A DNA stretch of 17,454 nucleotides from a virus. Its lineage: Duplodnaviria > Heunggongvirae > Uroviricota > Caudoviricetes. The notes beneath the pieces were generated by a model, which was not told the origin of the DNA, made no database searches, and saw only the letters and a list, made by a program, of their open reading frames with translations. Positions within the stretch are counted from its first letter, which is position 1, and every line of letters starts with the position of its first letter. Shown in pieces: positions 149-11,509 of the stretch. A program made the translations under genes and the position numbers. The stretch lies in the IMG/VR virus record IMGVR_UViG_2579778773_000004, positions 1 to 17,454 of that record; one strand, 5' to 3'.

Positions 149-210
149 TGGCACGGAGTAGACTGGCTATCTAAGCTAAAGGTCTGCTGTGAGCGAAAAC
201 CGGACATGTA
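149..210. repeat. Junction element copy A (core TGGCACGGAGTAGAC at 149-163, plus a GCGAAAAC box at about 193-200)
   Basis: Read directly: TGGCACGGAGTAGAC...GTGAGCGAAAACCGGACA. Aligns by eye at roughly 70% identity over about 55 bp with copy B at 2794-2866 (TGGCACGGAGCGGAC...GTGCGAAAACAGACA). Lies downstream of the 211-aa cargo gene on the - strand. Confidence 0.6.
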
Positions 211-516: not shown

Positions 517-1152
517 TTATTTTCGTAAAAAAATCGACGCCCTATCCGGGTTTACTTTACATAGATGAGAAAGATATAGCGCCCTTCGATTAAATTTGCC
601 TTCAGTAAGGTCATCAATGTTTTTCCTGAATGGGTACTTAATCCGTGCAGCTATGTCAAAGTCACTAATGCTTGCATGAGCTTTGGTAAGTTTAGCTATC
701 CCATAAGTGCCATAGCCAAAGTAGCAACAGGATATATATGCTATGCAGATATCATCTGCTGTTGTTGCTTTCCTGATAAGAATGGCTAATATTTGCTCTC
801 TTATTTTTCTTCGAACTGTTTTCTCATATCTCTTAGTTATTGTTCTAACAAACTGTTGGTCTATAGTACTTGCGCCTTGATGAATGTTTTTAAATAATCT
901 CAGATATATAGTTCTTAAAATAGCAACTGGATCAACTCCCCTGTGTAATAGTTGCCGATGATCCTCAGCCACTCTTAATATATCAATTAAAGATAAAGAT
1001 ATAGATCTTTCACTTATCGAACTAAGCCTTATATAATCAATACATTTATAATAATCTTCCATAATACTTTTAACCCTGAATTTAAAAACCATTTCTGCCA
1101 ATAGCAAGTATGGCAATGACAGTAAGGTAATCAAAAAGCGCTTCGCTGCCAT
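517..1152 (-). CDS. Hypothetical membrane-anchored protein (cargo gene, 211 aa from the internal start MAAKRFLITLL...); second gene of a two-gene operon
   Basis: ORF track gives 517..1188 (223 aa). I prefer the ATG at 1152 because AGGAG sits 7 nt upstream (minus-strand reading CAGGAGACGTGAA-ATG). N-terminal hydrophobic stretch FLITLLSLPYLLLAEMVF suggests a TM helix or signal anchor. A 200+ codon ORF in very AT-rich DNA is unlikely by chance. No family recognised. Confidence 0.55.
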   Translation of the reverse strand: MAAKRFLITLLSLPYLLLAEMVFKFRVKSIMEDYYKCIDYIRLSSISERSISLSLIDILRVAEDHRQLLHRGVDPVAILRTIYLRLFKNIHQGASTIDQQFVRTITKRYEKTVRRKIREQILAILIRKATTADDICIAYISCCYFGYGTYGIAKLTKAHASISDFDIAARIKYPFRKNIDDLTEGKFNRRALYLSHLCKVNPDRASIFLRK

Positions 1153-1679
1153 TTCACGTCTCCTGATGTATCTGCAGCGGTGGACCAAAATTTGCCATGC
1201 ATAGCATCTGCATTCACCTTTTGGAAATACAGCAAAATGGTATAACTCCTTAACTCACCTTCCATTTTTATATTCAATGAGGCATGATTTTTCCTTAAGT
1301 AATTTCTCTTAATCACCCCTCGAACCTCTCCAATACTTCTATGCTTACCAGTGTATGGTCTTATATTATTATTGTTTTCAACGTCTTTTGTTTTCTCAAT
1401 AAACCCTTCAATATTATTGTTGTCACATATTAAAGTCAGTGTATAAAACGTTTTTAAATTCAAGTAAGGATTATACGCAGATTTTAGTGTTTTACATTCA
1501 ACTTCAAAGACGCCCGAAAAATTTGGTGGCGGTTTAATATATTCTTTGAATATAAAAATCAATACAGCCGCAATAAGAGTAGCAACAGCACCACTTAAGA
1601 TTTGATTTGTGGAAATAAAGGTTAGAGATGGCTCAAGCCATTCCCAAAATATGTTGAAAAAATCAGTAAATTTATTCAT
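1131..1679 (-). CDS. Hypothetical single-TM membrane protein (cargo gene, 182 aa); first gene of a two-gene operon
   Basis: ORF track entry. Hydrophobic segment ILSGAVATLIAAVLIFIF (residues about 27-45). Its 3' end overlaps the start of the downstream gene by 22 nt, suggesting translational coupling. Very AT-rich. RBS is weak (AAAGAAA). No family recognised. Confidence 0.5.
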   Translation of the reverse strand: MNKFTDFFNIFWEWLEPSLTFISTNQILSGAVATLIAAVLIFIFKEYIKPPPNFSGVFEVECKTLKSAYNPYLNLKTFYTLTLICDNNNIEGFIEKTKDVENNNNIRPYTGKHRSIGEVRGVIKRNYLRKNHASLNIKMEGELRSYTILLYFQKVNADAMHGKFWSTAADTSGDVKWQRSAF

Positions 1680-2076
1680 AAATTTCTTTTGATAGTATGT
1701 TTTTTATATGATGTTACATTTTTGAGAAAAAAGCAACTTCGCCGATTAAAAACTATCTCGCTGGAATTTATGGGCATCATGTTATGAATACATTCTTATC
1801 CCATAGGGAATAAAACCCTATCTATAGAATAAAAATCCAAATTTTATCTTAATAAATCAGATAAAAGATACTTATACTACAAAGGTACTTGTGTAAGATC
1901 AAACTTTTAATCCTATAAGTTATAGATTGAAGCAACTGTGACTTATAGTGCGCACACTTAAGAATCTCCGATGACGATGGTAGCAGGAGACAACTTTTGA
2001 CAACTCACTCCTATTACCAACTTACTGACTTGCTCCGCGTTGAGAGATTTATAGTTATGCCAGCACTGTCCGCTTC

Positions 2077-2116
2077 TGGCACATTGCGGAAGGGCTAACG
2101 GCCCGGAGTAAGTGAG
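2077..2116. repeat. Junction element copy D (TGGCACATTGCGGAAGG, with flanking inverted repeat TCCGC/GCGGA)
   Basis: Read directly: GTCCGCTTCTGGCACATTGCGGAAGGGCTAACGGCCCGGAGTAAGTGAG. Shares TGGCAC-N3-GCGGA with copies B and C. TCCGC (2069-2073) pairs with GCGGA (2086-2090). Lies downstream of the 171-aa gene. Confidence 0.45.
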
Positions 2117-2180
2117 TAACGGATGTTTGCAAGCACTCTTACTGCTGACAATGATCGCATCCAAGATAAAATAGGTGGTG

Positions 2181-2696
2181 TCAAGGTACAGGTTCACCAA
2201 TATAAGTGTGTGTGCAGCAACGACATGTCACCTTAACGTCATCTCTTGTGATTGAAAGGTTTACCTGTTGCAGAATTCCATTCTCATCAACAAACAGACC
2301 TGGGTAAAAACTGCTTTCACCAATGCAGACTAAATCCCTTCGCTGATGCTCATGTAGCGCGACCAACCAGAATACCGGCTCGGTGGTATCAAGACGTCCA
2401 CATACTTCGCTGAATATTTCATTCCACGGCTTGCCAATCTCTTTGATCAGAAAATAAAACAACGGTGTGTAGTCTCGGCCACGCTTCTGTCTGCTATGCA
2501 TTGTCTCGCGCTTTACCAGTAGCTCATCTCCGACTTTTTTGCGATTTCGTTCCCACCGATACTCAGCACCCGGATTATTAGAATGGTGCCGCGTCGTCGT
2601 GTTGACGCTGCGATATAGTTTACGGGACTTATTCTGCTGATGAATACGCATAGCTCGATCTCGTACATCCTTTCTTTTGTGGGCCAGTAGCCCCAT
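2181..2696 (-). CDS. Hypothetical highly basic protein (171 aa), cargo gene of unknown function
   Basis: ORF track entry. AAGG lies 8 nt upstream of the ATG at 2696. Local GC (near 47% by eye) is higher than the flanking AT-rich cargo. Arg/Lys/His-rich N-terminal half. No motif recognised; could be a nucleic-acid-binding protein or a decayed gene. Confidence 0.4.
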   Translation of the reverse strand: MGLLAHKRKDVRDRAMRIHQQNKSRKLYRSVNTTTRHHSNNPGAEYRWERNRKKVGDELLVKRETMHSRQKRGRDYTPLFYFLIKEIGKPWNEIFSEVCGRLDTTEPVFWLVALHEHQRRDLVCIGESSFYPGLFVDENGILQQVNLSITRDDVKVTCRCCTHTYIGEPVP

Positions 2697-2793
2697 TCAG
2701 ACCTTGTGTTACTGTATAAAAAATGAACACCCTTAAAGGCTGTATCATTCTGCTCAAATACCATCCTACTGACAACTACCAAAGGTCGGATTC

Positions 2794-2866
2794 TGGCACG
2801 GAGCGGACAATCAAGTAGAACTGAAGGCCCGCTATGTGCGAAAACAGACAGACACAGATTGATCAC
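2794..2866. repeat. Junction element copy B (core TGGCACGGAGCGGAC, plus GCGAAAAC box)
   Basis: Read directly. Begins 17 bp downstream of the stop of the HExxH gene (2883). Homologous by eye to copy A. Contains a weak inverted repeat AGCGG...CCGCT. Confidence 0.6.
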
Positions 2867-2882
2867 AAACATACCTGAACCA

Positions 2883-3812
2883 TCAGGATTTTATATCCTT
2901 GTGTGGCTCTAATCCTTCAGAAAGGACTTTATCAAATGCAGCATATTGCCTTTGTAATTTACTTTCACATTCATACAGACTCTTTAAACTAACATCATCC
3001 ATAGATTGAAAGAGTCTTTTGTTATCAACTAAATAGGAGTATGCATTAAAAATAGAAACATCCATTATATCTTTCAGTTCTTCATCAGATAGTTTAGTCT
3101 TTTTACTTAAATGCTTAATCACATGTGACTGCAATGCATTTGCGCGAACCATGGCGGGAGGATATTTGCTATTCTTCCCTTCCAATTTACATAGAAAATT
3201 AAAGAAAAAAAATATTGATGTTAAAGATAAACTAACAAGTGTTTTCTCTTCTATTTTTTTCTCCGGGGCCTTTTTTATTGTATTTAAGACGACATCTGCA
3301 ACAAAGTATGCTGAGAATACATCTGCATCATACTCCATTAATGTTTTAATCTGATCTTCACTAAAATCTTCATCGACTACATTGTACCCCATTGAATAAA
3401 CTTGGTAATCACCAATCAGGTTTATTTCTTTACTTTTGGCTAATGATAAGTGTCCACGAGCGACATGTCCAAGTTCATGACCGAAAATATGGTGCCAAAT
3501 AAAGACACACCCTAACGCAACTGGAGCTTCCTTTTCTTTCAAGTCAGGGTATTCTCTCATGAAGAATTCTATATTTTCAGAAAGAATGTCAAACGTTATT
3601 GGTATCAACCCACTCAATAAAATAATATGGAAATTATTGTCTTTTTTTTGTGCGTGAGCATTAAGGTTAAAATCGTCCTTAATGTGCAGAGCTATTTTTT
3701 TACCATCCTCTTCAATAGCGGAGTTTATCTCTATCAATCCTTTTTTGAAGGTATCGTAAACAGGCAAGAAAAAACCACTTTCTATTTTCGAAATTTCATC
3801 ACGGGTCATCAT
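2883..3812 (-). CDS. Putative HExxH zinc metallopeptidase (309 aa; motif HIFGHELGHVARGH), possibly ImmA/IrrE-like; standalone cargo gene
   Basis: ORF track entry. Tandem ATG ATG start with strong RBS (minus-strand TTAAAGGTGGAAAT-ATGATG). HELGH is a zincin-type HExxH motif in a hydrophobic context. A 309-codon ORF in very AT-rich DNA is unlikely by chance. The family assignment is from motif recall only. Confidence 0.7.
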   Translation of the reverse strand: MMTRDEISKIESGFFLPVYDTFKKGLIEINSAIEEDGKKIALHIKDDFNLNAHAQKKDNNFHIILLSGLIPITFDILSENIEFFMREYPDLKEKEAPVALGCVFIWHHIFGHELGHVARGHLSLAKSKEINLIGDYQVYSMGYNVVDEDFSEDQIKTLMEYDADVFSAYFVADVVLNTIKKAPEKKIEEKTLVSLSLTSIFFFFNFLCKLEGKNSKYPPAMVRANALQSHVIKHLSKKTKLSDEELKDIMDVSIFNAYSYLVDNKRLFQSMDDVSLKSLYECESKLQRQYAAFDKVLSEGLEPHKDIKS

Positions 3813-3869
3813 ATTTCCACCTTTAACATGAAATCTAATTCTAATTGATAGGTCTACTTAGTTTCGCTC

Positions 3870-3898
3870 ATTGTACTATTTTATTAAAGTGGGTTGAA
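3870..3898 (-). promoter_or_regulatory. Candidate sigma70 promoter for the HExxH gene (-35 TTCAAC at 3893-3898, 17-nt spacer, -10 TACAAT at 3870-3875, minus-strand reading)
   Basis: Read directly from the reverse complement of 3841-3935. An AT-rich UP-like stretch (CTATATAAAAATGTAA) lies immediately upstream. Implied 5' UTR is about 50 nt. Confidence 0.3.
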
Positions 3899-3935
3899 GG
3901 TTACATTTTTATATAGCATGTCTACTGTCCCTTTG

Positions 3936-3981
3936 TGGCACAGAGCGGACTGTCAGATTAGTTTTTACTCTGTGCCATAGA
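3936..3981. repeat. Junction element copy C: perfect 10-bp inverted repeat TGGCACAGAG / CTCTGTGCCA around a 22-nt loop; putative end-of-operon hairpin after G
   Basis: Read directly: TGGCACAGAG-CGGACTGTCAGATTAGTTTTTA-CTCTGTGCCA. Shares the core TGGCAC(R)GAGCGGAC with copies A and B. Lies 30 bp downstream of the G stop. No U-tract follows on either strand, so it is not a canonical intrinsic terminator. Confidence 0.55.
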
Positions 3982-4011
3982 TGAGTAATCTCACACCAGA
4001 TCTAATACGAT

Positions 4012-4590
4012 TTATTGTGGCATTTCAGGCCATTCTATATCCGGAGCATCTTCCGGCTGAACGCGATTCAGTAGCACACGGTATTTTTTCCAGTGTGTCA
4101 GACTTAACTTTTCTTCCTCGGTAGCCATATCTAAATCGACAGCATCCTGCAGCGTGGCAATAATTTCACCTGCATATGCAATCAGCTCTTTCTTCTGAGA
4201 GTCAGCCGCTCTGACAAGCGCATCACGCTCTGCATTCTCATCATTCACCCACGCATTTCCGTTCCATTTCTGATAATCCCCATCCGGGGAAATGGCTGTC
4301 ACGTCTGGAGGTAATGCGCCAAGTTCAGAAATATAAATGGCTGCTCCTGTTTTTGTTTCATAGACAGTCTTTCCACGATGGTCTTCCACCAGATCCCATT
4401 TCATTTCATCTGCATTGAAAACGGCGGCAAAACCCACCGGAATATCTGGAGGTGCAATGTCTGTACTGTTTGCAGGAAGACCTGTATGCGGCGGAATATA
4501 TGCGTCACTTTCGCCAATAAATTCATTGGTTCCATCAAGTAAATTGAAAACGCGGATAGTTTGTGTCTCTGCACTCATTCTGAAAGTCAT
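4012..4590 (-). CDS. G: Tail fiber assembly protein (chaperone), gpG-like
   Basis: Position immediately after H with a TAATG stop/start overlap. C-terminus ...[10 protein letters not shown] matches the conserved gpG C-terminus as I recall it. The N-terminal part is variable, as expected for the partner of the fiber tip. Start at 4590 is preferred (GAGG upstream); alternative ATG at 4578. Confidence 0.85.
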
Positions 4591-6365
4591 TATGCCAGCC
4601 TCACAATATAGTTATACGCAACGTTTTTTACGGTGTTCTCTGAATTACCTGTGGCACTTACAGTGACGGTATGACTATGCGCGCCAATCGCAATGGAATG
4701 GCTGTGAGCACCAATGCCAACCGTGTGATTATGCTGACCAATGTCGACTGTATGGGCGTGTGCTCCCGCAGAGCTTGACACCTGGTTGGTTCCTGATACC
4801 TGTACGCGTTGTTTACCCCCGATGGAGTCACCACCGTAACGACCACCGACAGTGTGTGTATGCGCTCCCGTATTGTTTGTCGTTTTTGTGCCGTGGTTAA
4901 ACGTGCTGACCGTTTTTGTCCCGTAATCAAACGAACTGGTTGTTTTCGTCCCTAAATCCGTACTGGATGCACTGGCACTGTGGGTATGTGATTTAATTCC
5001 GTCCTGTTCCTGTGATAATACGGCGCGACCACTGGCGGGTTTGCCCTTGATTGTCCAGCCGCGCATATCTGGAATCACCCCTGACGGATAAGCTACTGCA
5101 AGCAGGGGATAGGCTGCTTTATCAAAAGTCTGCCCCTGCATCAGGGCATAGCCTGTAGGTACTGAATCAGAAGGCCACGGGATTGGAGCACCTACCGGAA
5201 AGTTGTTGTACCCGTCATGATGAATCAACTTCCAGCCTTTAAAAACACCTGCGCAAACTGCCGCAAAACCGATTACATCTCCATTAAAATCAATGCCAAT
5301 AACAGTATTGTATCCCTGAGTATTGCTGTGTGCAGAGTTGATGTAGTGCTTCCAGGTGTGTCCTCCAGGCATTCCATTCTTTGCTGAGGAAGCATTAAAA
5401 AAGCCACCACGCGTACGTAAATCAGTAGCAATATCACTTATATTTTCGGCGTACTCATTTAATCCCGCTCCTTTAGGTACTCGCTTGTTTGCATTGTCAT
5501 TAGCAGCTTTCACTGCTTTCGGAGTCGCGGCAAGCGTTTCAGAATCGCTGTTGGTGGCACTACTTAGCTGGACAAGCCCTTTTCGTGCCGTGGTGGCGTC
5601 CTGTGCGGTGTATTTGCCATTAGCAAGGTCATATGCTGTCTTAACCGCCTTTGGCGTTGCTGCGAGCGTCTCAGATTCGCTGTTGGTGGCACTACTTAGC
5701 TGAACAAGACCTTTTCGCCCCGTGCTGGCGTCCTGAGCGGTATATTTTCCGTTAGCAAGGTCATACGCTGCCTTAACCGCCTTCGGCGTTGCGGCCAGCG
5801 TTTCAGATTCACTATTGGTCGCGCTGCTTAACTGAGTAAAACCTTTTGCAGTCAGTGAGGCGTCCGGATGGCGTCGTGACTGTTCGTGCTCTGCAATTTT
5901 GTCATCAACGTAATCCTGCGTCGCCATCACCGTTGTGGTGTCGATGGTCAGATCCACTGAGGCCACACTGCTGACGATAATGACCATGCGGCAGGTCTGC
6001 GAACGTCCTGAGCCTTCGGCAAGGGCAGGCTTATAACTTTCGGCCATGTTCGCCACGGCAATTAACGCACCGGTATCATCGTACAGACCAAGTTCACGCA
6101 TCCAGAAACCGCCCACCTCCGGCGGGATGACCAGCTCTGCGATAATATAATTACTGTGTCGATTGTCCTGACTGATTTTATTCAGGGCATGTCGCCAGAC
6201 CTCATTAACAAGTTTTGTCTGTCCGGCATCCGGCACCGGCAATTGACCGCCACCGTCCCCGACGGCCATCGTGGTAATGTTGACCTTCCTGCCTCCCGGT
6301 GCAGTCGCCGCTGCCAGCTTTGCTGCACCGGCGGTAGTGATAACGGTTTGGAACTTTACGCTCAT
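4590..6365 (-). CDS. H: Tail fiber protein gpH-like (591 aa); P2-like N-terminal region, divergent His-rich C-terminal receptor-binding region
   Basis: N-terminal [40 protein letters not shown]... matches P2 gpH by recall. Internal tandem repeats [20 protein letters not shown] (phage tail fiber repeat). C-terminal GAHxHTV / HSH repeats. Confidence 0.93.
5496..5843. repeat. Tandem repeats of about 132 bp (2.6 copies) inside H, encoding the tail-fiber repeat G(F/L)[42 protein letters not shown]
   Basis: Visible at both protein level (residues about 175-290) and DNA level (three near-identical blocks between about 5490 and 5845). Confidence 0.85.
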
Positions 6366-9770: not shown

Positions 9771-10023
9771 CGTTTTCGTCCTGACAGTGTTTAATCATTT
9801 TTACCTGGCTGGCACAACGTGCCAGCGCGTTCTCGAGCTGCCGGATATCGGCACTTAAATCGCCGTTCGTCTCCGGGTCACTGCCCGGCATCGGGCAAAG
9901 GCTCACTTTCGGGCAGGCGTTGGCGACAATCACTGGCGTCGGTGCAGGCGGGGCGCTGGTGCAACCGGCGCACAGCATCAGGCAGGTCAGCACCGTACCA
10001 GCGGCGAAAATCTTCGTTTTCAT
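9733..10023 (-). CDS. lysC: LysC, Rz1-like outer-membrane lipoprotein spanin (96 aa), nested out-of-frame in the 3' part of lysB and extending into the 5' end of R
   Basis: Internal start MKTKIFAAGTVLTCLMLCAGCTSAPPAPTP... at 10023 (ATG read at 10021-10023 on the minus strand). Lipobox LCAGC followed by a Pro-rich region. The track ORF (135 aa) is an upstream extension; 96 aa matches P2 lysC. Confidence 0.8.
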   Translation of the reverse strand: MKTKIFAAGTVLTCLMLCAGCTSAPPAPTPVIVANACPKVSLCPMPGSDPETNGDLSADIRQLENALARCASQVKMIKHCQDENDAQTRQPAQGAD

Positions 10024-10303
10024 TAAGTAACCTCGTGATGGTTTTCTCGCGCTGTGCTTCACGCTTCGCGGCGTTCTCCAGTTCCTGACGCAGTGCCACC
10101 TGCGCCAACTCGTTTTTGTCTGCCCTGGTGAGGGCAGCATGAAGCTGATTTTTCAGCATGATGATGGTCGTCTGCTGTTCACTGGCGACGTTGTTCACCC
10201 TGTCCAGCGAGGCGCGCAGGCTGGCGTTTTCATGCTTCGCCAGAAACAGTCCCGCCACCGCCAGCGATAACAACACAACCAGCACAATCATCAGCTTTGA
10301 CAT
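9878..10303 (-). CDS. lysB: LysB, Rz-like inner-membrane spanin (141 aa)
   Basis: N-terminal TM MSKLMIVLVVLLSLAVAGLFLA followed by a charged, coiled-coil-like region. Length and position match P2 lysB. Confidence 0.9.
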   Translation of the reverse strand: MSKLMIVLVVLLSLAVAGLFLAKHENASLRASLDRVNNVASEQQTTIIMLKNQLHAALTRADKNELAQVALRQELENAAKREAQREKTITRLLNENEDFRRWYGADLPDAVRRLHQRPACTDASDCRQRLPESEPLPDAGQ

Positions 10304-10716
10304 GGTTCCCGCCCCTCAAGACGCTGACGGCAGGCCGTGCGTATCAGCCGGAAAAACAGCGACGCCACGAGATAAATCAGCGCAGTAAAAATCCACCCGG
10401 TGGCAACCAGCGAGATAAACGTCGCCACCATCACTACCAGAGCCGCCGCCCGTCTGCACCACGGCACCGGCTGCAAAAACAGCGACGTGACAATCTTCAC
10501 GGCCAGCGATTCCGGTGGCAACTCCCGCCCGTAGCGTTCCAGCACATACTCCGTGGCATACACGCCAACACCACCGGCAACCACACAGATAACCGTCACC
10601 AGAATCGCCCAGGCAGCGACAAAATTGACGGCCACGCTCTGCGGGTAAATCAGGGACAGTGCCAGCATCAGCGCCAGCGACACATTCAGCATCAGTGAAA
10701 GGGATAATTTCTTCAT
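10291..10716 (-). CDS. lysA: LysA, multi-TM lysis-timing protein (141 aa)
   Basis: Several hydrophobic segments. Length and position after K match P2 lysA. Confidence 0.88.
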   Translation of the reverse strand: MKKLSLSLMLNVSLALMLALSLIYPQSVAVNFVAAWAILVTVICVVAGGVGVYATEYVLERYGRELPPESLAVKIVTSLFLQPVPWCRRAAALVVMVATFISLVATGWIFTALIYLVASLFFRLIRTACRQRLEGREPCQS

Positions 10717-10730
10717 GGTGTTTACTCCGT

Positions 10731-11228
10731 TTAAGCCAGTACGCCGCCAGCGGTACGCCAGACGGTGACCAGTTTTTCCAGTGAATGCTCACGCTGACCG
10801 TAACCGGCACCCGGCAGGGACGCCCAGATATTTCGACAGCGTGAAATGGCGCGCTCAATACGTCCCGCCCGGATGTCATCCAGCGCACCGCGTTCGCGGA
10901 TCAACTGAATGGCGAGTCTGTCCTGTGACAGCGGACTGAAATCCGGCAGGGCAAGCTGTTTGCGGTAATGCGGCCAGAACAGGTAAAGCTGCTGATAGCG
11001 ACCGGAGGCCGTGGATTTTTCACCGCGACGGTTAAACACCTTCGCCGGTCGGCCATGTGCGAACGGGTGGTCACTGTAGTCGGTGAAGATTTCCGGCTTC
11101 CCGTCCAGTCCGGTGACTATCACGTCATAGCCACGGTTTTTCGTCAGCGGATGATTCGCCGTCCCTTCGGACACCGCCAGCATGTCGAGAAAGGCGGCGA
11201 TATTCTGGTGCGTGTTAATTACCGGCAT
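10731..11228 (-). CDS. K: Endolysin gpK-like (165 aa)
   Basis: Length (165 aa) and position after the holin match P2 gpK. Sequence MPVINTHQNIAAFLDMLAVSEGT... recognised as the P2-type endolysin. Confidence 0.93.
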   Translation of the reverse strand: MPVINTHQNIAAFLDMLAVSEGTANHPLTKNRGYDVIVTGLDGKPEIFTDYSDHPFAHGRPAKVFNRRGEKSTASGRYQQLYLFWPHYRKQLALPDFSPLSQDRLAIQLIRERGALDDIRAGRIERAISRCRNIWASLPGAGYGQREHSLEKLVTVWRTAGGVLA

Positions 11229-11509
11229 TACGGTTTCCCCCTGCCCTTAAAGCGGCGCTGAATGGCAATCTCAATCACCTGATAACCGGCGATACCCAGC
11301 ATGGAGCCGATGCCGCACACCGCAGGCAGTGACAGGTCAGGAAACTGCACCAGAACAACACCGGCAACCATCGAGACAAAACCACCGAGCAACATGCGCC
11401 CGATAAACAGACGCGGGGTGATGGGTTCACCACCGGCAAGCACCTTGCCGACAACAATCAGCACCCCAATCATGAAAAGCGACAGGACGCTTTTTTCTTC
11501 TGCTGTCAT
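11228..11509 (-). CDS. Y: Holin gpY-like (93 aa)
   Basis: Small protein with hydrophobic TM segments and a basic C-terminus (RRFKGRGKP). Length and position match P2 gpY. Confidence 0.92.
   Translation of the reverse strand: MTAEEKSVLSLFMIGVLIVVGKVLAGGEPITPRLFIGRMLLGGFVSMVAGVVLVQFPDLSLPAVCGIGSMLGIAGYQVIEIAIQRRFKGRGKP

Follow-up and report, generated by a model that had tools for sequence, protein, structure and literature searches.

This locus raises the question of whether a single prophage gene, encoding a 309-residue metallopeptidase-like protein, is an anti-phage defense gene. The gene lies in the window, the 17,454-nt stretch of viral DNA analyzed here (IMG/VR record IMGVR_UViG_2579778773_000004), and its features are collected in Table 1. 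The first-pass annotation, made from the letters of the window, had described a HELGH protein of 309 residues with a strong ribosome-binding site, a tandem ATG start, and its own promoter. The open reading frame translates as described, with HIFGHELGHVARGH at residues 108-121 (numbered from the first ATG), and the product is identical to RefSeq entry WP_047668714.1, a "hypothetical protein". Comparison with four orthologues gives dN/dS values of 0.15-0.27, which are indicative of purifying selection and, thus, of a real gene. Both adjacent ATGs are present (3812-3810, then 3809-3807), with the AGGTGG Shine-Dalgarno sequence spaced 4 nt from the first and 7 nt from the second. The claim of a dedicated promoter stands only in part. 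The region of the -10-like hexamer TACAAT is kept as TAGTA(C/T)AAT in four of five loci, and this hexamer is a putative promoter element of the peptidase cassette; however, its -35 element is weak, and a consensus promoter scan upstream of the gene called no sigma-70 promoter at threshold. No signal peptide, lipobox, or membrane anchor was found in the protein. Its N-terminus is hydrophilic (mean KD -0.06 over 30 residues), and its sole hydrophobic 19-mer (residues 192-210, KD 1.77) is a buried core helix modeled with high confidence. The protein is best explained as soluble and cytoplasmic.

Table 1. Features of the peptidase cassette, in window coordinates
Feature	Position	Strand	Basis
CDS, 309-aa metallopeptidase-like protein	2883..3812 (stop codon included)	minus	ORF call; dN/dS; RefSeq identity
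HELGHVARGH codons (H112, E113, H116, H121), zinc-binding/catalytic helix, form HExxHxxxxH	3450..3479	minus	invariance; model helix
Family-specific insert of ~37 residues (aa 122-158) between HExxH and ExxAD helices	3340..3449	minus	model; gap in Lit alignment
ExxAD codons, E160-Y-D-A163-D164	3321..3335	minus	invariant in strict family; aligns to Lit E181/A184/D185
(H/Y)PxxxxR motif codons, Y217-P-P-A-M-V-R223	3144..3164	minus	Y and R invariant, P nearly; aligned to Lit HP...R
Shine-Dalgarno AGGTGG	3817..3822	minus	AAGG(T/C)GG invariant in 5 orthologous loci
-10-like hexamer TACAAT, putative cassette promoter with weak -35	3870..3875	minus	conservation
Whole mobile single-gene module: ORF, ~160 bp 5' region, ~40-90 bp 3' region	2791..3972	minus	DNA homology
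Boundary, phage-core side: degenerate hairpin GTCCGCTCT-TGGCAC-AGAGCGGAC with conserved flank TGTCAGATTAG..ACTCTGTGCCATAG	3927..3980	.	"left inverted repeat" of P2 Z-region
Distal boundary: direct motif copy (2794-2808, exact), then inverted degenerate copy (2827-2841)	2785..2850	.	

A structure search with the model, the check proposed in the first-pass annotation, found the zincin fold of the gluzincin metallopeptidases (clan MA). In the model, strands 39-44, 51-56, and 59-65 precede helix 94-117, which holds HELGH (residues 112-116). Across 62 divergent relatives (down to ~15% identity), the H, E, H, and H of HExxHxxxxH are invariant, as are D and R; E, A, and P are nearly so. The strict family of 24 members conserves N51, H112, E113, G115, H116, G120, H121, E160, A163, D164, Y217, and R223. 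E160 lies in the next long helix after the HExxH helix and aligns with the invariant E181 of Lit. By this correspondence, E160 is predicted to be the third zinc ligand, and D164 is predicted to be the His-orienting Asp. The (H/Y)PxxxxR motif is common to this protein, Lit (THPAAYER), and the M48 peptidases. The family-specific insert is partly a low-confidence loop, with pLDDT below 50 at model residues 129-138. The protein is best explained as a gluzincin-type metallopeptidase in which H112, H116, and E160 are predicted to be the ligands and E113 the catalytic residue, and it very probably binds zinc and acts as a protease.

The comparison with Lit, the "cell death peptidase" of prophage e14 (PF10463), bears on function. 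Cleavage of EF-Tu by Lit is triggered by the phage capsid Gol peptide and leads to abortive infection. The two proteins are of similar length (297 residues for Lit), and both are soluble single-domain gluzincins that carry HExxHxxxxH, ExxAD, and (H/Y)PxxxxR in the same order. The motifs read HELGHVARGH, EYDAD, and YPPAMVR here versus HEISHVVLQH, EREAD, and HPAAYER in Lit, the third motif starting with Y rather than H. The secondary-structure elements of an AF2 model of Lit (pLDDT 88.6) are co-linear with those of our model over the whole length, and the PDB structural neighbors of the two models are the same. Both genes are also single and partnerless, and both are prophage cargo near an element end or hotspot. 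However, the insert at residues 122-158 has no equivalent in Lit, in which only 16 residues separate H164 from E181. In Lit, the helices that lie between the beta-sheet and the active-site helix are longer, and the sequences of the C-terminal helices differ between the two proteins. Moreover, the 309-residue protein falls outside PF10463 and is no nearer to Lit than to M48.

Our best overall explanation, held at about even confidence, is that the gene is lysogenic-conversion cargo whose product keeps superinfecting phages out, much as Lit does. Its parts differ in strength. An anti-phage role, to which genomic context and the analogy with Lit both point, is slightly favored. Trigger-dependent cleavage of a host factor in the style of Lit, which is sensor and effector in one protein (PMC13228613), is a more tentative proposal. 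By this mechanism, the single protein would be latent in the lysogen and would be switched on by a phage-made protein or complex. Once active, it would abort the infection by cutting a phage protein or an essential host factor, which in the case of Lit is EF-Tu. A more specific version, which we consider rather unlikely, is that the protein is the founding member of a new family in which one protein is both phage sensor and effector; it would be a latent cytoplasmic gluzincin that arose independently of Lit in the M48 supergroup. In that case, the insert at residues 122-158 and the C-terminal helices would recognize the phage-made protein, and the enzyme would cleave an essential host factor other than, or besides, EF-Tu. 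By analogy with Lit, the gene is a credible candidate for single-gene anti-phage defense, as the first-pass annotation had suggested.

The gene lies directly downstream of the tail-fiber assembly gene G (Caudo_TAP, E = 3e-40), and in strain CE0011b the same block is found between G and the tail-sheath gene FI, which is the P2 Z/fun cargo site. The GC content is 0.33-0.35 across positions 3001-4000, as compared to 0.53-0.61 in the structural genes. An AT-rich gene in a prophage cargo hotspot had been proposed from the window, and both points hold, the hotspot being the G-FI (Z/fun) site of a P2-like prophage. The tail-gene (Z/fun) and int-att sites of P2 are defense hotspots, and when genes of no known function were tested from the corresponding P4 hotspots, most conferred protection (PMC13586616). 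Protection against T7 is provided by a lone DUF4238 gene (PMC9122126). Genes without a known role in a Z/fun-type hotspot are already expected to be defensive. The P2 hotspots also hold non-defense genes, including partitioning systems and a cytolethal distending toxin (PMC9122126).

These latter genes bear on the main alternative, that the peptidase is accessory cargo with a role outside defense: a protease of counter-defense or inter-element competition, a stress or virulence factor of lysogenic conversion, or a phage protease of lytic growth. The first annotations of P2 Z-region cargo read "putative lysogenic conversion protein", which is consistent with such a role. The peptidase gene also shares its strand with the late tail operon and follows it at a distance of 200 bp; because of this arrangement and the absence of a sigma-70 promoter at threshold, it may be expressed in lytic growth instead of in the lysogen. 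Two contexts of the family lie amid SOS-type cargo (umuDC, SRAP, DinI). In addition, the one informative match in a BFVD structure search was an uncharacterized protein from an uncultured Myoviridae genome (E = 1.8e-7). Among these roles, secreted virulence is unlikely because the protein has no signal peptide. Against a non-defense role as a whole, several contexts are bona fide defense islands, and the closest functionally characterized relative that is soluble, standalone, and prophage-borne is Lit. We consider this alternative unlikely, but it is the one that deserves the most weight.

The contexts that inform this comparison number 14 and span prophages, an ICE edge, plasmids, and islands. 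They include the int-att end of a P2-like element in K. oxytoca, a lambdoid prophage in Vibrio, the edge of an ICE/T6SS region in Dickeya (adjoining DUF4238), an IncF plasmid, a Vibrio plasmid on which the gene adjoins AbiE and a type I R-M system, and locus L019, where it adjoins Gabija. At least one context looks chromosomal. The immediate neighbors of close homologues are mostly unannotated cargo, not PADLOC-recognized defense genes. Because the peptidase gene is one of three cassettes arrayed in the window, its standalone status, as claimed in the first-pass annotation, could be assessed only by comparison across genomes. Other genera carry the peptidase without its window neighbors, and no recurrent neighbor family was found across the 14 contexts, so the claim is supported.

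Homology at the DNA level delimits the unit that moves. A module of ~1.1 kb is found at 80-87% DNA identity in E. coli, two Klebsiella species, Dickeya, and an unassigned contig, in contexts that are all different, and homology with the Klebsiella, Dickeya, and L013 loci stops at positions 2791-2847. Copies of a Z-region motif occur at 2794-2808 and 3936-3950, and positions 3927-3980 match the "left inverted repeat" annotated in GenBank entries AJ512681 and AJ512685. The hairpin repeats around the cassette are inverted repeats already known from the P2 Z-region. The known Z-region cassettes (TO, Z/fun; Nilsson, Karlsson and Haggard-Ljungquist 2004) occupy the same site downstream of G, have the same left inverted repeat (of which copies lie on both sides of the peptidase cassette), and are likewise AT-rich cargo with their own predicted promoter. 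Unlike in those cassettes, the repeat here also stands between the members of a run of three cassettes, and it is carried along with the peptidase cassette into contexts other than P2. Two other identities for the repeat, a sigma-54 promoter (TGGCAC-N5-TTGC) and an Ogr/Delta late-promoter dyad (TGT-N12-ACA), were rejected; the spacing and half-sites fit neither, and no copy occurs at the late promoters of the window. Rfam has no family for it. Positions 2791-3972 are best explained as a self-contained, horizontally mobile single-gene cassette in a P2-like prophage.

The same comparisons argue against a multigene system that would include the genes downstream of the peptidase in E. coli, which encode a 171-residue protein, a 182-residue membrane protein, a GT51 transglycosylase-domain protein, and WP_029396804. 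Within E. coli, the cassette is always accompanied by these four genes, and the block is at least 99.7% identical in three settings (P2-like prophage, NB4833 island, and IncF plasmid). Outside E. coli, however, the peptidase occurs without any of the four in all genera. The block is also a compositional mosaic (GC 0.33, 0.46, and 0.33) with copies of the Z-region repeat between its pieces, and the cassette of the 171-residue protein occurs without the peptidase in more than 1,700 E. coli genomes. A multigene system is, thus, improbable.

Still less probable is a regulatory protease of the ImmA/IrrE/CapP type (M78), which would activate an element or immune operon by cleaving an HTH repressor. 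Those proteins are likewise HExxH zincins, are similar in size, and occur on mobile elements and near immune operons, and PADLOC capP weakly matches five of the 62 distant relatives (best 3e-4). However, their defining trait is an HTH repressor partner that serves as substrate. As had been noted from the window, no such partner is adjacent here: the ORFs flanking the peptidase gene have no HTH domain, and the absence of a recurrent neighbor extends this to the other contexts, which largely refute the regulatory reading. The structural likeness to these proteins is weaker than that to M48 and M13, and the sequence signal is negligible. The earlier comparison of the protein to ImmA/IrrE is not supported: Pfam M78 (PF06114) does not match the protein itself and touches only two of the 24 family members (E = 0.04), as compared to sub-threshold Pfam M48 matches in 20 of the 24 (best 6e-4). 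These data place the protein in a branch of the M48/Lit supergroup. The likeness to M13 (neprilysin, PepO, ECE-1, Zmp1) is at the level of fold, with no detectable sequence similarity; M13 enzymes are ectoenzymes of 600-700 residues in which a second large domain encloses the active site.

The position within that supergroup was examined by profile comparison. The wide family profile matches the Lit family profile at 96.7% (E = 3.7e-10) in an alignment of 164 columns that starts at the beta-sheet and ends at (H/Y)PxxxxR. A "Lit subfamily" drawn from this hhalign match was dropped because a stricter profile and M48 controls show equidistance: the strict family scores 78.6% against Lit (over 90 columns) and 79.4% against three E. 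coli M48 proteins, and Lit scores 78.6% against M48. PF10463 matches neither the protein nor any of the 24 family members at E <= 1. The PADLOC Lit model misses the protein and matches only five of the 62 distant relatives (best 1e-4); Lit itself scores 1.7e-112. For Pfam M48 (PF01435), the protein scores 13.2 bits (E = 0.081, residues 109-138 only) against a gathering score of 20.3 bits, and alignments with single M48 proteins begin at the beta-sheet and go no further than HExxH. Searches of Pfam, NCBIfam, PHROGs, and PADLOC profiles returned nothing above threshold, PADLOC-DB v2.0.0 defense-protein models gave no match at E <= 1, and the gene was unmatched by tblastn in 50,697 phage records. 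In a PDB sequence search, the close-family profile had no match, and the wide profile gave only marginal matches to HtpX and BepA. No description of the family was found in the literature on WP_047668714.1, Lit-like/U49 proteins, or M48 in defense. These profile data place the family, which has no name, as a third lineage at about the same distance from M48 as from Lit (Peptidase_U49). The family is rare, with 15 clusters in 5.8 billion proteins, and a contig scan of 185,579 species representatives found it in seven, one locus being a full-length relative.

Characterized M48 members are located in the envelope or membrane by a signal peptide, lipobox, or TM anchors. M48 enzymes (HtpX, BepA, LoiP, Ste24) serve core envelope and membrane quality control, in contrast to the present family, a rare one confined to mobile elements. 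The M48 gene of the EPEC RRDM island was considered and set aside as a type I R-M-associated peptidase in a different setting. That the protein is a housekeeping or quality-control M48 peptidase that entered a prophage by chance is scarcely credible; the sub-threshold Pfam M48 matches and the structural neighbors BepA and 3c37 are in its favor, but the score is below the curated cutoff, the signal peptide, lipobox, and membrane anchor are lacking, only two of 5,426 complete E. coli genomes and the seven species representatives carry the gene, and it always lies in variable or mobile regions on AT-rich foreign DNA.

Abortive infection by Lit is a textbook case, and Lit is the clearest example of a single protease that both senses the phage and kills the cell. 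To our knowledge, it has stood almost alone of its kind for decades, and no solved structure was found for the Lit family. A second soluble, standalone lineage borne on mobile elements, with the same catalytic scaffold and a different insert and C-terminus, would offer a natural comparison with Lit that could show how latency is controlled and how trigger and substrate specificity evolve. The 1.1 kb cassette, with its own 5' region, is directly testable by cloning. Current defense-annotation tools are blind to the peptidase, which would extend them. The locus also affords a clean example of one cargo gene moving with P2 Z-region repeats among P2 hotspots, plasmids, ICE edges, and islands in four genera. 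If the protein does found a new sensor-effector family, it would be a second, mechanistically distinct case of abortive infection by a one-polypeptide protease.

The P2-like prophage reads on the minus strand of the window, where baseplate genes are present and the tail-fibre assembly gene is followed by AT-rich DNA containing the target ORF (see table). The GC content is 0.33-0.35 at window 3001-4000 versus 0.53-0.61 in the structural genes. E. coli CE0011b carries the identical block at the P2 Z/fun accessory site, with gene G on one side and the tail sheath gene on the other. The first-pass annotation had described AT-rich cargo in a prophage hotspot, and both composition and position agree with it. 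The ORF, HExxH motif and expression signals it described are likewise seen in the sequence: two ATGs begin the ORF, with AGGTGG 4 nt upstream of the first and 7 nt upstream of the second. The RefSeq entry for the protein is WP_047668714.1, annotated as 'hypothetical protein'. Comparison with four orthologues gives dN/dS values of 0.15-0.27, and the target is therefore a functional gene. The proposal that it has its own promoter holds in part. A -10-like TACAAT is present, and TAGTA(C/T)AAT is kept in four of five orthologous loci; the accompanying -35 is weak, and a consensus promoter scan upstream of the target detected none. The late operon shares the target's strand, and read-through into the target is possible.

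Features of the window, with the peptidase modules shared with other loci (blastn) and the boundary repeats
Feature	Window position	Strand	Remarks
Tail fibre gene	4590-6365	-	P2-like prophage structural gene
Tail-fibre assembly gene	4012-4590	-	Caudo_TAP, E = 3e-40
Rfam IS009 match	4049-4247	-	Inside tail-fibre assembly gene
Point matching IS2 insertion of CE0011b	4060-4065		3' end of tail-fibre assembly gene
-10-like TACAAT	3870-3875		
Target ORF	2883..3812	-	309 aa, contains HIFGHELGHVARGH
Module shared with K. oxytoca	2847-3972		
Module shared with K. variicola	2791-3950		
Module shared with unassigned contig	2847-3888		
Module shared with Dickeya	2802-3842		
Middle cassette	2062-2809	-	ORF 2181-2696; GC 0.46; 156-171-aa protein, no family match
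AT-rich two-gene cassette	517-1679	-	182-aa protein (one predicted membrane helix) and GT51 protein
Repeat copy at 149	149-163		
Repeat copy at 2077	2068-2091		
Repeat copy at 2794	2785-2808		
Repeat copy at 2827	2827-2841		Inverted
Repeat copy at 3936	3927-3980		
Alternative stems	3927-3975		z = -2.9

The window copy of the tail-fibre assembly gene lacks the IS2 found in CE0011b (10021-11249 of that locus), which is flanked by a short target duplication. The CE0011b prophage is probably defective, because its tail fibre gene is annotated as fragmented pseudogenes. The same assembly gene contains a sub-threshold match to Rfam IS009 (RF02111; 52.9 bits versus a gathering cut-off of 117, E = 2.3e-10). 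Sequence of prophage origin within the Rfam seed probably accounts for this match, rather than an RNA gene here.

The target belongs to a family that is new to annotation libraries. Its sole Pfam match is a sub-threshold hit to M48 (13.2 bits versus a cut-off of 20.3, aa 109-138), and NCBIfam, PHROGs and PADLOC give no meaningful match. Clustering at 90% identity yields 15 family clusters among 5.8 billion proteins, all unnamed and originating from Escherichia, Klebsiella, Dickeya, Salmonella and Vibrio. When 1.84 billion representatives were searched exhaustively with a profile, 109 proteins scored E < 1e-3 and only 12 scored E < 1e-30; relatives occur in only 2 of 5,426 complete E. coli genomes and 7 of 185,579 species representatives. 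Residue numbers here take the first ATG as position 1; alignment and model coordinates begin at the second ATG and so run one lower. Across 62 relatives, to ~15% identity, H112, E113, H116, H121, D164 and R223 are invariant and A52, G120, E160, A163 and P218 nearly so. In the strict family, which comprises 24 full-length members, the conserved positions are N51, H112, E113, G115, H116, G120, H121, E160, A163, D164, Y217 and R223, which therefore define three motifs, HExGHxxxGH, ExxAD and YPxxxxR. Their conservation bears out the zincin assignment made at first pass. Family conservation makes E160 the most likely third zinc ligand. The Asp of ExxAD orients a His in M13 and M48 enzymes, and D164 probably plays this role in the target by analogy. 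The target is predicted to be cytoplasmic and soluble, because no signal peptide was found and its sole hydrophobic 19-mer is a helix buried with confidence in the model. A structural search of predicted viral proteins (BFVD) gave one significant match, A0A8S5NTQ9, an uncharacterised 428-aa protein of an uncultured Myoviridae (Foldseek E = 1.8e-7, query TM-score 0.63); at the level of predicted models, it shows related folds in phage genomes beyond the enterobacterial family.

Two placements of this family were considered. The ImmA/IrrE-like signature proposed in the first-pass annotation is rejected, as Pfam M78 is touched by only 2 of the 24 strict-family members versus 20 that reach M48 below threshold, and the family is instead M48/Lit-like. 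The other placement was as a subfamily of Lit, the phage-exclusion protease of the e14 prophage. A strict and a wide profile of the target family were compared with the authentic E. coli K-12 Lit (b1139), a 28-sequence Lit family alignment and M48 proteins (see table). With the wide profile, the alignment to Lit begins at the beta-sheet and ends at (H/Y)PxxxxR; with the strict profile, it spans HExxH to YPxxxxR. PADLOC models of Lit and CapP weakly match a few distant relatives, none of the 24 strict members reaches Pfam Peptidase_U49, and Lit itself also matches M48 weakly (E = 0.011). The subfamily placement is rejected, since M48, Lit and the target family are about equidistant in these comparisons; the honest reading of the profiles is that they form three lineages of one supergroup.

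Profile comparisons among the target family, Lit and M48
Query	Subject	Probability	E	Columns
Wide target profile	Lit family	96.7%	3.7e-10	164
Strict target profile	Lit family	78.6%	1.7e-5	90
Wide target profile	Single Lit	91.5%	8.7e-7	127
Wide target profile	Single BepA	79%	1.6e-5	57
Wide target profile	Single HtpX	75%	2.5e-5	36
Wide target profile	Single LoiP	72%	3.5e-5	51
Strict target profile	Three-protein M48 alignment	79.4%	1.5e-5	55
Wide target profile	Three-protein M48 alignment	94.9%	4.6e-8	145
Lit family	Three-protein M48 alignment	78.6%	1.7e-5	63

Lit remains the best analogue because its overall design is alike. The elements of the Lit AF2 model (pLDDT 88.6) and of the target model come in one order over the full length. 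Two helices and three strands are followed by another pair of helices and then the HExxH and ExxAD helices; a core helix, the HP..R helix and C-terminal helices complete both models. As for the target, the PDB neighbours of the Lit model are BepA (10.9), 3c37 (8.3) and PepO/neprilysin (7.4-7.9), with CapP at only 5.3. Both proteins are soluble, ~300 aa and without partners. However, ~37 residues are inserted between the two catalytic helices of the target, the helices ahead of the active-site helix are longer in Lit, and the sequences of their C-terminal helices are unrelated.

The peptidase travels as a module of ~1.1 kb, the ORF with ~160 bp upstream and 40-90 bp downstream, which other genera share at 80-87% DNA identity. 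Its surroundings differ in every locus. It occupies the P2 G-FI site in E. coli, the interval between a P2-like prophage integrase and host dadX in K. oxytoca, a lambdoid prophage in V. parahaemolyticus and integrase/HNH islands. In Dickeya, it has a transposase on one side and a convergent DUF4238 gene on the other; a cluster of type IV secretion genes lies alongside and is taken to mark the edge of a conjugative element. Other copies adjoin DUF4917 and a Dam-type methylase, reside on an IncF NDM-4 plasmid, or adjoin AbiE and a type I R-M system on a Vibrio gigantis plasmid; a distant relative adjoins a complete Gabija system. The K. variicola island contains umuDC, a resolvase and DUF5677, with an SRAP-domain gene within a few kb. 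The contig carrying P0009 has a phage tail gene upstream, and umuDC, SRAP, HipA_2/DUF3037 and DinI within a few kb. These two independent contexts may represent a recurrent SOS-related cargo neighbourhood. All-against-all blastp of ORFs within 6 kb in 14 contexts (the P0009 contig left out) found no pair common to any two loci. The gene therefore has no obligate partner, in keeping with its initial description as standalone.

In E. coli, the peptidase cassette is accompanied by four downstream genes in three settings. This five-gene block, which encodes the peptidase, the 156-aa, 182-aa and GT51 proteins and a hypothetical protein of 259-272 aa, shows 99.7-99.9% identity across the P2-like prophage, a chromosomal island of strain NB4833 and a conjugative carbapenemase plasmid (IncF NDM-4, NZ_CP050167). 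DUF2254, betT and IS1 flank it in the latter two. The near-identity points to recent transfer between plasmid, chromosome and phage. The block is a mosaic with GC contents of 0.33, 0.46 and 0.33. Its middle cassette is bounded on both sides by the Z-region repeat and occurs alone at ~96% identity in >1,700 complete E. coli genomes; one example lies in an integrase island adjoining ychF, with DEAD/DEAH helicase, AAA ATPase and HTH genes. In the AT-rich two-gene cassette, the gene for the 182-aa protein overlaps the start of the GT51 gene. The GT51 protein (~211-223 aa) lacks a transpeptidase domain. Its peptidoglycan glycosyltransferase domain matches Pfam Transgly (E = 1.8e-22), its EDxxxxxHxG and RKxxE catalytic motifs look intact, and its N-terminus forms a hydrophobic anchor. 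Such a monofunctional transglycosylase is unusual prophage cargo. Neither protein has a PADLOC match.

The motif TGGCAC(R)GAGCGGAC occurs in six copies in the window versus 1.0 expected, a count reached in 0 of 200 shuffles; the tabulated copies lie exactly at cassette junctions. The element is widespread in IMG/VR: 120 contigs have the core as part of a perfect hairpin, GTCCGCTCT-TGGCAC-AGAGCGGAC, flanked in most by TGTCAGATTAGGCTTTACTCTGTGCCATAG on one side and unrelated sequence on the other. Two mutually exclusive stems are possible at the junction upstream of the target. The repeat region matches the 'left inverted repeat' annotated for the P2-EC48 and P2-EC67 Z-regions (AJ512681/AJ512685), and the element is therefore already known. 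What is new here is that degenerate copies separate three successive cassettes, and that non-P2 islands also contain copies alongside the peptidase cassette and other cargo, at cargo junctions in NB4833, K. variicola, the unassigned contig and locus L025.

The target is thus a real, mobile-element-borne gene for a cytoplasmic, partnerless protein with a gluzincin fold and a full catalytic motif set, situated in a described P2 defence hotspot. The named P2 hotspots are the Z/fun locus, which lies among the tail genes, and the interval between integrase and att, and six of eight randomly chosen unknown loci from equivalent P4 hotspots were phage-protective (PMC13586616). A single DUF4238 gene is anti-T7 (PMC9122126). 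Lit recognises a complex of capsid protein and EF-Tu and cleaves EF-Tu (PMC13228613). If the target followed Lit, the protease would be latent in the lysogen, a phage product would activate it, and the activated enzyme would cleave an essential host or phage protein. Proteolytic activity is predicted with high confidence. An anti-phage role, argued from context and analogy, is somewhat favored, and the Lit-style mechanism is a more tentative suggestion. Against a defence role, most genes directly next to close homologues lack annotation, the family is about as close to housekeeping M48 enzymes as it is to Lit, and the late operon could supply transcription by read-through. The central idea of the first-pass annotation stands with two amendments: the family resembles M48 and Lit instead of ImmA/IrrE, and the case for defence is circumstantial. 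Genes of P2 hotspots without known function are already expected to be defensive, and the target is probably a known kind of thing, a single-gene, prophage-borne protease for phage exclusion.
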